Below are positions 38,251-45,116 of a DNA stretch of 64,000 nt, in pieces. The stretch is from contig NIVC01001711.1 of NCBI GenBank assembly GCA_002269645.1, forward strand, positions 124,001-188,000, read 5' to 3'. The translations under genes were made by a program, and so were the position numbers. Numbering within the stretch: the stretch's first letter is position 1; each line of letters opens with the position of its first letter. Origin of the DNA: Macrostomum lignano (taxonomy: Eukaryota). The notes beneath the pieces are model-generated. The model saw only the letters and a list, made by a program, of their open reading frames with translations, ran no database searches and was not told the origin of the DNA.

Positions 38251-38472
38251 TACAGAGGATAGAGAGCCCCGCCCCAGTTGCAGGGGACAGAGAGGCAGTG
38301 GGTGCGGAGGGACAGAGAGCAGCCCAGGCAGGAGGCGCGGGACAGAGAGGCGGTGAATCACACCCCCAGGAGAGAGCCGTACAGTGAGCTTCCCCAGGCC
38401 CGGGGGAGAGGGACGGACGGGCAACGTGTAATTTCAAACCCATAAATAGAAGCAGTGTACAAAACCCTCTGT

Positions 38473-39252
38473 ATGGAGAACATGGAGGCGGGTATAACTG
38501 ATAACCCCTATTTCAGCAACGAGAGCGTGTGCGCCAGAATACCCCTCATTGAAAGATTGTTATCAGACACTAGGAAAAGAATCGCGGGATTGTCCACAAA
38601 GGAGCGCTTAGAATTCACGTATCTAGCCAGGCTGGCATTCGTAACAGAAGTAAACATTGAGGAGAGAGAGGTGGCGTTGACTTGGGAGGAAGCAGAAGAA
38701 GCGATAAAAACCCGGTCCTGTATGGTCACAGCCAATCTATGGAGTGCGGCAATACACCTCAATGACACGAGGGGGTTAATTGACACAGAGTTTGTTAGGC
38801 AAGTTCACACACGCGTGTGCAGAGGACTGCTCCCGAATGCGGGATCGTATAGAATTAAGCACGCCAAGCCAGCAGGCGCGAGTATGTATTACAGCGCCCC
38901 AGAAAATATCGAACGGCAGCTGGTAAAATTAACTAGAGACATAAAAGAGCCACAAATCTTGCGTAATGCAGTAGTGACAGGAGCATATTTCCTAGAAAAG
39001 TTTCTCACCATACACCCCTTTAGCGACGGCAATGGTAGAACTGCTAGGTTGTTATTATCAAAGTTGCTCAACCGGATTCTGCCAGAACCCGTATCATTTG
39101 CGTATGCAAATAGAGACACATATCTCAACTGTCTTTACGAAGCGCGCAGCAGCAACCGGGGGCTCCTAGCGGCGTATTTACTTTTATCAATTGAGAGAAC
39201 CGTTCTACAGTGGAGGGAATGGTTGGAAATCTGTTCAGACGGCAGCCTATAA
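38473..39252 (+). CDS. Fic-domain protein (putative AMP transferase)
   Basis: Canonical motif HPFSDGNGRTAR; GSYR motif upstream; N-terminal EVNIEE...LTWEE resembles the class II inhibitory helix. Confidence 0.9.
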   Translation: MENMEAGITDNPYFSNESVCARIPLIERLLSDTRKRIAGLSTKERLEFTYLARLAFVTEVNIEEREVALTWEEAEEAIKTRSCMVTANLWSAAIHLNDTRGLIDTEFVRQVHTRVCRGLLPNAGSYRIKHAKPAGASMYYSAPENIERQLVKLTRDIKEPQILRNAVVTGAYFLEKFLTIHPFSDGNGRTARLLLSKLLNRILPEPVSFAYANRDTYLNCLYEARSSNRGLLAAYLLLSIERTVLQWREWLEICSDGSL

Positions 39253-39287
39253 ATAAATAAAATTTGGTATTTCTCAACAATATCGAA

Positions 39288-39641
39288 ATGTACTGGCAAT
39301 CGGAAATAGTGTACACCCACGTTGACAACGCAGTGCTGGAAGTGGGATATTGGGACCCAAACAAGCCGCGTTTCCGCATCCACTGTCAAAACTGTAGCTG
39401 TCCAGGAGCCGTGTTTAGTCGAGCACAATGGCATCGAATGAAATTTCTGGGCACTAGCTGCACAGATTACGATCTCGGAGGCGGCGCATCTATCAAAGTT
39501 ATCGACGGGAAGCGCCTGTACGTAAAAGGAGACTGCGAATTTCACCTGTCAGACAAAATACTTTGTGCAGTTGAAAAGAATAGAGTCGACAATTTCTTCC
39601 ACTATTTCTTTCTCGACGAATCTGACGAGTCAGAGGAATGA
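39288..39641 (+). CDS. PC4-like ssDNA-binding / transcription co-activator-like protein
   Basis: FRIH...GAVFSRAQWHRMK resembles PC4 GISLNPEQWSQLK; acidic tail; TATAAATAAA 40 nt upstream. Confidence 0.45.
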   Translation: MYWQSEIVYTHVDNAVLEVGYWDPNKPRFRIHCQNCSCPGAVFSRAQWHRMKFLGTSCTDYDLGGGASIKVIDGKRLYVKGDCEFHLSDKILCAVEKNRVDNFFHYFFLDESDESEE

Positions 39642-40153
39642 GCTGGATTTCTCGAGACTACCCGCTTTTATCGAGCAAAGAAAGGGCAGAGTACGAGACC
39701 CTGAAAAAGTCCACAGACTGGTTATGCATTTGTCACGGCAAACCAATTCCCGAACGATTAGTCACCTTTAATGTCGAGGTAGACGAAATTGGGCAAGGGC
39801 CTTACAACACCCAAGAATATACAGATGCCCGAATTGACTACTACTTTAGAGACAAGATGCATTTCAAAGCAAATCTTCAAAGAATGGAGCAGATAATTGC
39901 CCCAATATTACAAGAGGATCATCGTGAGAAAATACGGTACCGGAATCACCAGCCGATTGCTCCCTCGTGGACGGAACACCAAAGGATTTGGCGACCTAAA
40001 CACAGTAGACCAGTGCTAGCGAAGTTGACTATCAACCTTCACTGCAGCTGCATTAACGACACGCCTCAAACCCCTCGACCAGAAGATCGAAACAAAAGGT
40101 TTATTTTTTCCGGATTTCCAACACCGGAAAGTGTCGTTAAAGAAGCACTATAA
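39638..40153 (+). CDS. Hypothetical protein, 171 aa
   Basis: Intact ORF with ATGA overlap to the previous stop; no family recognised. Confidence 0.65.
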   Translation: MSWISRDYPLLSSKERAEYETLKKSTDWLCICHGKPIPERLVTFNVEVDEIGQGPYNTQEYTDARIDYYFRDKMHFKANLQRMEQIIAPILQEDHREKIRYRNHQPIAPSWTEHQRIWRPKHSRPVLAKLTINLHCSCINDTPQTPRPEDRNKRFIFSGFPTPESVVKEAL

Positions 40154-40245
40154 CAAAAACGCCCAGCCACCCCACCCTCCGCCCCAAGGGTATATAAGGA
40201 GGCGCTCAGGGTGTGAGACCCACTCTCAGCAACAGCAGCAGCAAC

Positions 40246-42509: not shown

Positions 42510-43589
42510 ATGAGGGCTCTAACCGCTCTTCGTCGAGTTTACGAACAAGGAGCCGCCGCTTTTTCAAATGCTGCCCGTGTCTATCAGGAGGCCAAACGTC
42601 TGGCGCCAAACCTGACAAGACGCCAAACCAGGGAATGGCTAGAAACCCAACCGAGTTACACCCGTCACCGGAGAGTCAACAGGACATTTAAAACGGGAAA
42701 AGTAATGTCGGGAGGATTCATGGAAACTCTACAAGCCGATTTGATGGACATGTCGCGATACAAACGTTGGAATGACGGACATAAATATATACTAGTTATT
42801 ATTGATGTGCTTAGTAAGCAGGCTTTTTGTAGGGCAATTAAACTAAAGAGTGATACCCCCGCAGCGTTTGAGTCAATGTTGGCGAATGATTTCCCTGCCC
42901 GCCCCCTTTACCTTCACGTGGATCGGGGTACCGAGTTTTATAATCAGCGAATGCGCCGCATACTAAAAGACAATAATGTTAAAATGTACAGCACCAACTC
43001 TGTGTACAAGGCAAACATGGCCGAGAGGCTGATTAGAACTCTTCGAAAGCGTCTGGCTCGCTACTTTGAGCACAACAACACGTGGCGTTGGGTTGACTAC
43101 TTACCTAATTTGGTAGGCAATTACAACAACACGACGCATTCTACTATTGAGATGAAACCGTCAAGTGTAGGGTTCCACAATCAGAAGCGTGTGTGGGAAA
43201 AGCTCTACCCGGATCAGCAAAAAGACGACCCCGTATATAAAAAGGGGGATTTTGTGAGAATTTCGAAATCTCGCAGGGCATTCGACAAGGAGGCGTACGA
43301 CATGTATAGTGAGGAGGTGTACATTATATCCAAAGTTTGTCCTGGACCCCCACATTTTTATCGTATTTCTGATTTGTCTGGTGAAGTGATTGAGGGACGG
43401 TTTTACTACAATGAACTGTCCAAATCTACCCGACCCGAGCGTTTTGTAATCAATAAAGTTTTGCGTAGAAACGTGTTAATAAATGGTGTTGCGCACCATT
43501 ACGTTAGCTGGCGCGGTTATCCCGACACTTTTAATTCATTTGTACCTGTAAATGAAGTTATAAATATACGTCAACGTAATAATAACTAA
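42510..43589 (+). CDS. Retroviral-like (rve) integrase with C-terminal chromodomain
   Basis: LQADLMDM, IDVLSK, HVDRGTEF, AERLIRTLR (DDE core); INKVL...YVSWRGYPDTFNSFVP chromodomain; ORF intact. Confidence 0.96.
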   Translation: MRALTALRRVYEQGAAAFSNAARVYQEAKRLAPNLTRRQTREWLETQPSYTRHRRVNRTFKTGKVMSGGFMETLQADLMDMSRYKRWNDGHKYILVIIDVLSKQAFCRAIKLKSDTPAAFESMLANDFPARPLYLHVDRGTEFYNQRMRRILKDNNVKMYSTNSVYKANMAERLIRTLRKRLARYFEHNNTWRWVDYLPNLVGNYNNTTHSTIEMKPSSVGFHNQKRVWEKLYPDQQKDDPVYKKGDFVRISKSRRAFDKEAYDMYSEEVYIISKVCPGPPHFYRISDLSGEVIEGRFYYNELSKSTRPERFVINKVLRRNVLINGVAHHYVSWRGYPDTFNSFVPVNEVINIRQRNNN

Positions 43590-43592
43590 TGC

Positions 43593-44728
43593 ATGGCTAC
43601 CATGCATCTCTTTCTGCCTAGCAATGCGTGCCCCGAGCACTATCCCGAAAATAATCCGGCTCATTATTTTATTAATTTACCGGATACTCTCCACTTTCCG
43701 AATCATGAGGTTTGCCTCGAACGGATCTACTTTACCAAAGAATTTGAATCTTTCAAAAAATCTATACCGATCACCATTCGCGAACAGGAGGGCCTCTTGA
43801 CGGCTTCGTCGTTTGCAAAGATTTGTCTCGCAGCGGGTCTGAAAACCCCTGAAGAATGTATTTCCGGCTTTCTAAACGGTATCCGATACGTTGAAGGGGA
43901 TAATAAGAAAATTGTCTTTTTAAGAACATCCCCAACCGCCTTTATGATTGTGAATACTTCAAAATCCACCGTCGGCATCAAATTCCCGGATACCTACCCA
44001 AGGTGTTTAAACTAGTCGCCGGCTTCGAGTCTAATGAGGATCTACCTACTGAACTCGTATTACACGCGGGGTGTGCAGCCTCCATCACCGCAGTTGTTGA
44101 GGAACCGACTGTACAGTCAATGGACCATGCTCCAATAATAAGACAAGTTACTAGCGCAGCGTCTGATCAAATCTTTTTTATGCGGGGAGGATACTATAGT
44201 ACACCTAAAAGATTGGTGGAGGAACTCAACGATATAATTTGGAAACATATCAAAGATCTCATAGCGGCTCCAGCACCTAGAACGGACTTTTTCAGATACA
44301 GCGAAGTTACGAATAGGTGTTATTACATTGGCTCGACGGATTACATGTTTGGCTGGGGCGCTTGACCAGCGTGCTTGGTTTCCCAGAGCATGATTATACA
44401 ACCCCATTTTTCGGTATATCGGAATTCTACGCAAACGCATCAATGGAATTAACCGGTGGAATACAAACAATGTACATCTATTCGAGCATAGTCGATTCTG
44501 TTATTGTAGGAGACGTTAAAGTTCCTCTGTTGGGAGCTATACCGATGGATCCCAAAGTTCAGGGCGGTCGCGAGTACTACGAGTTTGTCAATCCGGCATA
44601 TCTACCACTGGTTAAGCACCCATTCAAAACTATTGAAGTACAAATTAACGATGATATGGGCAGGGATATGACAAAAGTAATGAGGGAAGACCGTCTTGAG
44701 CGTTAACATCCGCGAAAAGAAGCTATAA
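43593..44728 (+). CDS. Minor capsid (penton) protein, read through three single-base frameshifts (~44003, ~44358, ~44685)
   Basis: LPSNAC..YPENNPAHYFINLP start; MYIYSSIVDSVIVGDVKVPLL...EFVNPAYLPL...IEVQIND; the shifted frame ends GKTVLSVNIREKKL*. Confidence 0.85.
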
Positions 44729-44771
44729 ATAAACAACACAGCCTCAGTAAACTATATCCTAGTGCTTAATC

Positions 44772-45116
44772 ATGCCTTCTATTCTGATTGGTGGAGCTTT
44801 GCCTGTTTTCGCAGGCGCCCAGAGGGGCAACGGTTTGTTTGGAAGCATTGCCCGCTTCGCGCTGCCAATTCTAAAGAGTTTTGGTAAAAACATTCTCCGT
44901 CATGGTACTAGAGCCCTAGCAACTACGGTTAACGATAGCCTCGAGCAAGGAGGCAATTTGAAAGAGTCTGTCCTGCGCAATTCTGTTCAGGCTTCCAAGG
45001 ACGCCTTTAAAGACACGGTTACCCAAAGGGATAGCGGACGAAGAAGAAAAAAGGCTCCGAAGCGTCTCAATTCAGACATTTTCAGCACTATAAATAAAAA
45101 GCCCCGCTTCAATTAG
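44772..45116 (+). CDS. Conserved Maverick basic core protein (QRGNG motif, DIF tail)
   Basis: FAGAQRGNGLFGSIARFALP...RRRKK...DIF. Confidence 0.8.
   Translation: MPSILIGGALPVFAGAQRGNGLFGSIARFALPILKSFGKNILRHGTRALATTVNDSLEQGGNLKESVLRNSVQASKDAFKDTVTQRDSGRRRKKAPKRLNSDIFSTINKKPRFN

Follow-up and report, generated by a model that had tools for sequence, protein, structure and literature searches.

A TATA-type box ahead of most genes of a polymerase-less Maverick in Macrostomum lignano, with the element's own TBP-like protein as putative reader

Conserved promoter motifs reportedly occur in the virophage/PLV group (mavirus, Gezel-14T), and motifs of this kind are read by the helper giant virus. Bidnaviruses are Polinton-derived ssDNA viruses with segments which have a common terminal sequence. 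In beta- and gamma-herpesviruses, late genes use a viral TBP mimic (BcRF1 in EBV, ORF24 in KSHV, UL87 in CMV) on TATT boxes (PMC4893493). Mavericks, Polintons and adintoviruses have terminal inverted repeats, a 6-bp target duplication, an rve integrase and capsid-, protease-, ATPase- and PZ-like genes (PMC8097293 and PMC8502044). According to the first of these papers, the genes of intact vertebrate elements are intronless and animal Maverick particles were unobserved at its date (PMC8097293); the main text of the second and of its preprint mentions a TBP gene in figure legends only (PMC8502044). A search of the openly available literature found no report of TBP-tied Maverick promoter boxes or of a bipartite Maverick.

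The element described here lies in a window of 64,000 nucleotides from the flatworm M. lignano (contig NIVC01001711.1, positions 124,001 to 188,000, forward strand) and belongs to a family termed A, with a sister family B and further families C to G in the same genome. It is similar to the known Mavericks, except that families A and B are without the protein-primed DNA polymerase B, pPolB (40 loci), and have a TBP gene and a predicted intron. With the virophage/PLV group it has in common a single motif ahead of many genes in a small double-jelly-roll virus, but here the element itself supplies the candidate reader. As in the herpesviruses, there is an encoded TBP fold, the structural genes have one class of box and no common upstream element was seen at them, and early genes have a canonical TATA and an upstream element, the use of host Pol II being presumed. 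In contrast to the herpesviruses, the element encodes a small TBP domain of two repeats that resembles the eukaryotic one and, in families A, B and D, is predicted to be joined by splicing to a further ORF; the box is a presumed canonical TATA in A and B and varies among co-resident families. The likeness to the herpesvirus vTBP rests here on the co-occurrence of TBP and box across families.

Structure and gene content of the element

The family A element was found to be flanked by terminal inverted repeats, in keeping with its assignment to the Mavericks/Polintons, and to contain 13 ORFs. Perfect 6-bp target duplications are present at two of ten other family A copies, namely those with both ends found, and the duplication at the window copy is imperfect. 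The element and its genes are as follows:

37901..48204, + strand: polymerase-less Maverick/Polinton of family A, 10.3 kb between terminal inverted repeats
38473..39252, + strand: Fic-domain ORF (Pfam Fic, E=3.9e-14), with its stop codon within the 39248 box
39288..39641, + strand: 117-aa ORF, family not recognised
39638..40153, + strand: 171-aa ORF, family not recognised
40246..40926, + strand: 226-aa ORF ending in a basic tail and predicted to form exon 1 of the TBP-like gene
40853..41326, + strand: TBP-fold frame of two repeats, without its own ATG
41365/41392-41754, + strand: PZ-like ORF
41757-42338, + strand: 193-aa ORF
42510-43589, + strand: integrase (Pfam rve, E=1.7e-9, retroviral-type)
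43593-44015, 44120-44365 and 44443-44706, + strand: minor-capsid-like gene, in three pieces here
44772-45116, + strand: core-like ORF
45146-46174 and 46156-46428, + strand: major-capsid-like gene (MCP), in two pieces here
46425-46862, + strand: protease-like ORF, weak Pfam match
46897-47526, + strand: packaging-ATPase-like ORF, weak Pfam match

The PZ label is one which we take to apply, and the capsid, protease and packaging ATPase labels are likewise partly presumed. The MCP of family A is ~30–34% identical to that of pPolB-bearing families. No pPolB ORF was found between the terminal repeats of the window element, and tblastn with the pPolB of families C and D as queries gave 0 matches in 40 A/B loci. 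Family A is therefore a polymerase-less derivative and not a canonical self-synthesizing element. The preliminary description had also credited the element with a PC4-like protein, for which the 117-aa ORF is the likely candidate. This was not borne out, as searches of Pfam, PDB and the atlas gave no match for the ORF, the PC4 profile gives E=0.23, and family B, in which the boxes described below are retained, is without the ORF.

Boxes ahead of the genes

Nine sites had been put forward as a uniform promoter code, and all nine were located at the reported coordinates. Seven of them read TATAAATA, presumably a canonical TATA box fitting the host consensus, and one is the variant CATAAATA:

38441..38448, + strand: CATAAATA variant box, preceding the Fic ORF
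39248..39255, + strand: TATAAATA box, 40 nt upstream of the 117-aa ORF, AATAAA overlap
41339..41346, + strand: TATAAATA box, preceding the PZ-like ORF, AATAAA overlap
41628..41635, + strand: TATAAATA box within the PZ-like ORF, 129 nt upstream of the 193-aa ORF
42371..42378, + strand: TATAAATA box, 139 nt before the integrase
43559..43566, + strand: TATAAATA box within the integrase 3' end, preceding the minor-capsid-like gene
44724..44731, + strand: TATAAATA box, 48 nt upstream of the core-like ORF, AATAAA overlap
45089..45096, + strand: TATAAATA box within the core-like ORF, 57 nt upstream of the major-capsid-like gene, AATAAA overlap

The ninth, TATATAAG at 40191, was listed as a variant of the common box and belongs instead to a distinct early-type promoter class. 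With CATAAATA and TATATAAG included, a box is present at 9 of the 13 genes; those without one in family A are the 171-aa ORF, the TBP-like frame, the protease and the ATPase. The distances from box to conserved start in family A are 40–139 nt, a spacing compatible with a Pol II start ~25–32 nt downstream of the box.

Between 38440 and 47560, TATAAATA occurs seven times on the plus strand and never on the minus strand. As had been estimated, such a density is rare by chance: dinucleotide shuffles gave a mean of 0.197 copies, with seven reached in 0 of 1000. All seven copies lie 25–150 nt upstream of a start codon, a zone making up 15.3% of the block (p ~2e-6). Three of them (41628, 43559 and 45089) are embedded in coding sequence, compared with a mean of 0.21 under synonymous shuffling, where 1 of 2000 shuffles reached three. 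Three boxes do translate as x-Ile-Asn-x and one or two provide a stop codon, as would fit an origin by chance or coding bias, but this explanation is refuted by the shuffles, strand bias, position and synonymous conservation (below) and its probability is negligible.

Sister family B is ~72–77% identical to family A, with 11% of aligned 8-mers identical, yet all seven TATAAATA boxes, as well as TATATAAG, are retained at matching places in the family B copy. Within the in-coding boxes 9 of 9 synonymous positions are kept, against background retention of 83/189, 8/13 and 31/47 (product ~0.006). Across the 40 A/B loci the box precedes the PZ gene in 25/25 cases, the 193-aa ORF in 28/28, the integrase in 27/27, the minor capsid gene in 28/28, the core gene in 26/26 and the MCP gene in 28/30, compared with 0/28 for the protease, and CATAAATA is found ahead of 13 of the 14 Fic starts examined. 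Enriched, strand-specific, upstream of starts and retained in family B, the boxes are very probably promoters, and the proposal of a uniform code holds to this extent.

AATAAA overlaps four of the seven boxes (39248, 41339, 44724 and 45089), and some boxes coincide with stop codons, which would suit sites that serve the upstream gene mainly as 3'-end or polyadenylation signals. However, this overlap is kept in the compared family B copy for only two of the four (44724 among them) whereas TATAAATA is kept for all, the box at 41628 lies mid-gene, and AATAAA is absent from the boxes of families C, D and E. This reading is thus highly improbable, and boxes doubling as poly(A) signals are weak candidates. 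A further AATAAA at 40978, considered as a conserved signal, was rejected since it is missing in family B.

The TBP-like protein and the boxes of other families

The TBP-like frame has a two-repeat saddle fold (model pLDDT 82.9; Foldseek E ~1e-8), with Z 14.1 and rmsd 2.9 over 152 aligned residues in VIA structure comparison, and the TBP of family C matches Pfam at E=1e-23. In all four TBP lineages Pro stands in place of the first intercalating Phe of the host protein, and Thr in place of the second-repeat Asn. The TBP of A and B has lost two of the four intercalating Phe and is without the full set of TATA-contact residues. Given these lost Phe, whose role, like that of the Asn, is presumed from TBP in general, the A/B protein might not bind DNA.

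Two features upstream of this frame concern its expression:

40167..40198, + strand: early-type promoter, C-rich CCACCCCAC..CCGCC, then TATATAAG
40786..40852, + strand: predicted GT-AG intron of 67 nt, whose removal would place the 226-aa ORF and the TBP-like frame in one reading frame

The same C-rich plus TATATAAG layout is found ahead of the PC4 genes of families C and F. The predicted splice is likely to be real: A and B have identical donor and acceptor sites, and the spacer measures 67 nt in family A, compared with 196 or 197 nt in the B copies. Family D has the same layout, with an AG acceptor right at the first TBP strand in 9/9 loci and one in-frame GTRAG donor in 8/9. Contigs from eight runs that are only guessed to be RNA contained no splice joint and no pile-up of starts or ends, which carries no weight either way. 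The 226-aa ORF gave an unusable fold model (pLDDT 31) and no atlas or PDB match, and its profile did not match the upstream ORF of family D (probability 1.8%). Long D frames, at first regarded as N-terminal fusions, are extended at the C-terminus.

Three further TBP-encoding families contain zero sense-strand TATAAATA and have boxes of their own before homologous genes: YTTAAGAA in C, TATAAGYW in D and YATAAGA in E, all non-canonical. Sense-strand counts are diagonal, with TATAAATA at 7 in each of A and B, YTTAAGAA at 7 and 7 in C, TATAAG[CTG][AT] at 6, 5, 4 and 3 in D (the definition including D_L059, itself among the elements counted) and YATAAGA at 6 and 5 in E (derived from the same two loci as counted). 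Expected counts are 0.2–0.7 per family motif, and off-diagonal counts are 0–1, except for 3 of the D pattern in B. The C box lies ahead of the integrase, minor capsid, core, PZ and ATPase genes, and of the MCP gene in most copies, and was not seen before the protease. In the TBP-less families F (4 elements) and G (3 loci) these boxes are not enriched. No relatives with DNA context were found in metagenome_contigs or viral_contigs, so a single host genome underlies the family comparison. DNA context is also missing for the protein relatives P0001-P0004 and P0008-P0012, and P0005 was rejected as a repetitive chance match.

The link between box and TBP-like protein drawn in the preliminary description finds indirect support only. 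The TBP fold was confirmed, and the check proposed on TBP-less Mavericks did not refute the link, families F and G lacking the motif density; the use of other boxes by other TBP-encoding families, however, makes TATAAATA family-specific, and the element TBP is, on balance, the putative main reader. The explanation favoured here, at a probability of roughly 60%, is that TATAAATA marks late-gene core promoters, read by the TBP-fold protein of the element together with host RNA polymerase II. Since each family has its own box and its own TBP-like protein, it is likely that the particle genes of each are read by a promoter factor of that family.

The boxes could also be ordinary strong TATA boxes read by host TBP/TFIID, with the element TBP in some other role, such as that of a repressor or of a decoy for Mot1/NC2/TAF1 or TFIIB. 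This is a real rival, as TATAAATA is presumably canonical and host TBP could thus read it, and two intercalating Phe are gone from the A/B protein. In addition, the TBP and integrase trees are congruent, both grouping A/B with D and C with E (with long-branch warnings), so that box and TBP may co-vary by descent alone. However, host TBP tolerates several TATA variants, and despite this presumed tolerance 7/7 late boxes are one 8-mer and the early promoter has TATATAAG; a fixed host reader also leaves unexplained why boxes of different genes shifted jointly between families to non-canonical forms such as YTTAAGAA. Herpesvirus BcRF1 binds TATA and TATT alike in vitro, which would again suit host reading (PMC4893493). 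Overall, reading by host TBP is judged rather unlikely.

The sequence TAAG is common to the C, D and E boxes. It is also the baculovirus late initiator, which raises the alternative of initiator-type late promoters, or of sites for the polymerase of a co-infecting helper virus as in virophages, where promoter motifs have been treated in virophage and PLV papers. A few C and E boxes lie 11 nt ahead of an upstream ATG, as this would have it, but the A distances given above and the C distances of mostly at least 34 nt fit a –30 element, four boxes in one host would require several helpers, and each family has its own TBP fold; the alternative is very unlikely.

Further observations run counter to reading by the element TBP. 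At some boxes an ATG lies between the predicted transcription start and the gene, at +43 and +113 for the integrase, +30 and +34 for the minor capsid gene and +35 for PZ; the ATPase of family B is preceded by CATAAATA only 28 nt before its ATG (with none in family A), and the TBP gene of family C itself lies behind a C box.

Proposed switch, partner element and significance

Under the favoured reading by the element TBP, the host-type early promoter at 40167-40198 (C-rich plus TATATAAG) would drive the 226-aa ORF, and the splice at 40786-40852 would attach the TBP domain to the first 180 residues of that ORF. The fusion would bind the family box, transcripts would begin ~30 nt downstream, and the resulting late transcription, of particle and integration genes, would amount to an early-to-late switch.

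The termini of the element recur in another element type:

37901..37936, + strand: terminal bases common to the family F (pPolB and PC4) elements, mirrored at the right end

The first 23–36 terminal bases are common to the family A element and the separate pPolB and PC4 elements. Because the ends are alike, this suggests that the capsid/integrase/TBP element and the separate pPolB/PC4 element form a two-component system. Unlike in bidnaviruses, two types of dsDNA element are involved here, each integrated separately. There is no support for F as the polymerase half split off from a D-like ancestor, since its pPolB has no BLAST match to that of C, D, E or G and no endonuclease VII match. A more comprehensive scheme is tentative and somewhat doubtful as a whole: a Maverick-run early-to-late switch with a divergent TBP per lineage (alternatively spliced in some) on a private TATA variant, leaving the families transcriptionally insulated, plus a two-component Maverick with shared replication ends.

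The box/TBP pairs bear on how animal Mavericks are switched on, and the laboratory flatworm offers four natural pairs which can be cross-tested. If the favoured reading is true, viral TBP mimicry would be extended from herpesviruses and giant viruses to endogenous viruses of 10–20 kb, with natural examples of TBP of altered specificity, and the partner with the shared terminus, if confirmed, would represent a split Maverick.

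The polymerase-less element and its boxes

The boxes were found within a Maverick element of family A, whose insertion site is a 23-nt minisatellite array (window 30900-37733 and 49062-50524). The features of the window are as follows:

37901-48204, plus strand, Maverick element of family A, bounded by inverted repeats
Genes of this element, all on the plus strand: Fic; ORFs of 117, 171 and 226 aa; TBP-like frame; PZ-like; 193-aa ORF; integrase; minor capsid (three pieces here); core-like; major capsid (two pieces here); protease; ATPase
27825-29926, minus strand, fragment of another Maverick type carrying a split Pox_A32-like ATPase (two pieces; Pfam E=0.0011) and a 309-aa ORF
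8368-25776, structure of 17 kb whose inverted arms (~900 nt) are near-perfect and which includes two inverted 20/41-nt tandem arrays around its core

Naming of the PZ, core and capsid genes is in part our assumption and otherwise follows similarity to pPolB-bearing families. The minus-strand fragment resembles the AT-rich family G, the core of the 17-kb structure (~6.6 kb) has no clear genes, and an ORF at window 5182-6207 (minus strand) has an N-terminus which we take to resemble a centrosomal CEP135-type host gene exon. At least 28 copies of family A exist in the genome of the flatworm Macrostomum lignano at 96-100% identity, together with a sister family, B. Perfect 6-bp target duplications were present in the two of 10 copies with both ends found, and none of 40 A/B loci yielded a pPolB.

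All nine box sites of the preliminary description were located exactly where it had placed them. The 8-nt box TATAAATA occurs seven times on the gene strand of 38440-47560 and never on the opposite strand, compared with 0.197 expected from dinucleotide shuffles (seven being reached in 0/1000), which bears out the claim of a count far above chance; ATAAATA is the top enriched 7-mer of the block. As had been described, the boxes precede start codons, with a gene start 25-150 nt downstream of 7/7, a zone covering 15.3% of the block (p ~2e-6). Three lie embedded in coding sequence, again as described, compared with 0.21 in synonymous-codon shuffles (three reached in 1/2000). The box is a real feature. 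The site at 40191, TATATAAG, had been grouped with the others and belongs instead to a second, early-type class behind a C-rich element, which is also found upstream of PC4 genes in families C and F. Overlap with AATAAA was observed for 4/7 boxes in A and is retained in B for two of these four; the box sequences of other families cannot contain AATAAA.

Families A and B are 72-77% identical, with only 11% of aligned 8-mers identical, and B keeps all seven TATAAATA boxes and TATATAAG at corresponding places with diverged flanks. At the three in-coding boxes 9/9 synonymous positions are kept, compared with backgrounds of 83/189, 8/13 and 31/47. Across the 40 loci, where copies of one family are non-independent, a box precedes PZ (25/25), the 193-aa ORF (28/28), integrase (27/27), minor capsid (28/28), core (26/26) and MCP (28/30), and the protease in 0/28. 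Some 43-45 nt past the integrase box (window 42414 onward), both families keep an ATG that is out of the integrase frame and possibly part of a regulatory uORF or spliced leader region. Family B (locus L015:4050-5200) lacks Fic, has a duplicated early promoter block and retains the box equivalent to that at 39248. It also lacks the 117-aa ORF, which could not be confirmed as the PC4-like protein previously proposed.

Boxes of other Maverick families

The same genome holds many pPolB-bearing Mavericks and many TBP matches. Family C encodes a clear TBP (Pfam E=1e-23) and has no TATAAATA; YTTAAGAA lies ahead of its integrase, minor capsid, core, PZ, ATPase and TBP genes, and of MCP in most copies, and was not seen ahead of its protease. 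Homologous genes are preceded by TATAAG[CTG][AT] in family D and by YATAAGA or YTTAAGAA in family E. Sense-strand counts of each family's own box were 7 for A, 7 for B, 7 and 7 for C (motif derived from two elements and counted in others), 6, 5, 4 and 3 for D (motif confirmed in three further loci) and 6 and 5 for E, where the count is circular, with 0.2-0.7 expected in each. Non-matching families gave 0-1, except for the D pattern in B (3). Family D (loci L058-L072) carries deoxynucleoside kinase and dUTPase genes, and in L067 the kinase and TBP-like frames are fused as a single ORF.

No box enrichment was found in family G (AT-rich, partial loci, in which the TBP profile matched nothing) or in family F (no TBP by tblastn), TATAAATA occurring twice in G (0.7-1.0 expected) and not at all in F. 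The box density that would speak against a link to TBP is thus absent from the TBP-less families, although TATAAATA is family-specific and not shared by TBP-encoding elements at large. The overall interpretation first offered is supported in part.

The TBP-like gene and the reading of the boxes

Similarity of the TBP-like frame to Pfam TBP is weak (E=2.7e-4), and its structure model (pLDDT 82.9) aligns with solved TBPs across all 157 residues (Foldseek E ~1e-8; Z 14.1, rmsd 2.9). Neither A nor B has an ATG upstream of the first strand of this frame. Both families share an identical GT donor within the 226-aa ORF and an identical AG acceptor at the first TBP strand, giving an in-frame join over a spacer of 67 nt (A) or, depending on the copy, 196 or 197 nt (B). 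In family D, the sister of A/B in both the TBP and integrase trees (with long-branch warnings), the acceptor lies at the same strand in 9/9 loci, two of which are near-identical copies, and one in-frame GTRAG donor is present in 8/9, the lone miss being near a contig start. The 226-aa ORF is predicted to be spliced onto the TBP-like frame; eight sets of contigs, a kind of data that does not reveal transcript starts, contained no such joint. The core genes in the consulted part of PMC8097293 number eight and are intronless.

An early host-type promoter would likely yield the 226-aa protein and, via splicing, the TBP fusion, which with host Pol II would fire the late boxes. We give a probability of roughly 0.6 to the element's TBP reading these boxes. 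That the host TBP reads them is less likely in our estimate. Several observations speak against the element's TBP as reader: TATAAATA suits host TBP, two intercalating Phe are missing from the A/B TBP, upstream ATGs lie past the expected start site at some boxes, and C's own TBP gene lies behind a family C box. The TBP tree also agrees with the integrase tree (long-branch warnings), so the pairing of box and TBP could arise by descent alone. Changes at DNA-contact positions, whose roles we assume, are common to all four TBP lineages.

Reading by the element's own TBP would resemble the beta/gamma-herpesvirus scheme, in which a TBP mimic works on TATT boxes (PMC4893493, in part), although the element is not a member of that late system. 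The literature searched gave no account of a TBP-linked promoter box in Mavericks; supplements may annotate such genes. In the portions consulted, TBP is named only in figure legends of PMC8502044 and preprint 10.1101/697771, the term has no match in PMC12220804, PMC11161782 and 10.64898/2026.10.13.758929, and "promoter" has none in PMC11296320.

Shared ends and a possible partner element

Two 23-nt terminal patterns gave 37 genomic matches (reversed controls 0), comprising 10 ends of family A copies (5 of the 10 assigned by coordinates), 17 ends of family F and 10 F-type ends without recognised genes. Family F elements are 9-11 kb, carry pPolB and a PC4-like gene, and gave no match to integrase, capsid or TBP; 6-bp duplications were present in every case with both ends seen. 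They have the early promoter and lack the late box. Examples are:

L033:9634-L034:8632; L036:8031-L037:8129; L100, L105, L106 and L107 (genomic loci), pPolB + PC4-like-only elements of 9-10 kb with 6-bp target duplications

The first ~36 terminal bases (window 37901-37936; ends of L100-L117) differ blockwise among copies, and in some cases a single copy has unlike ends (L037 vs L036, L107, L115), with constant flanking repeat sequence. The F-ended elements in which no gene was recognised (L103, L104, L108-L110, L112, L113) are likely non-autonomous passengers; those visible from end to end measure 3.4 and 7.3 kb. At L053:8274-9266 an element that has an end matching both A and F termini, with an A-type repeat interior, is inserted in a family C locus.

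Terminal variants are common to A and F, and B and F have a further 23-nt subterminal block in common. The F pPolB does not resemble its counterparts in C, D, E and G, so A/B and F look more like partners than like products of a simple split. Types of pPolB are covered in 10.1101/2023.08.22.554363. No report of a bipartite Maverick was found in the literature. We regard complementation between the element types as an even chance; sharing early promoter and terminal bases with the polymerase-less family, the pPolB-bearing elements may form with it a two-component Maverick.
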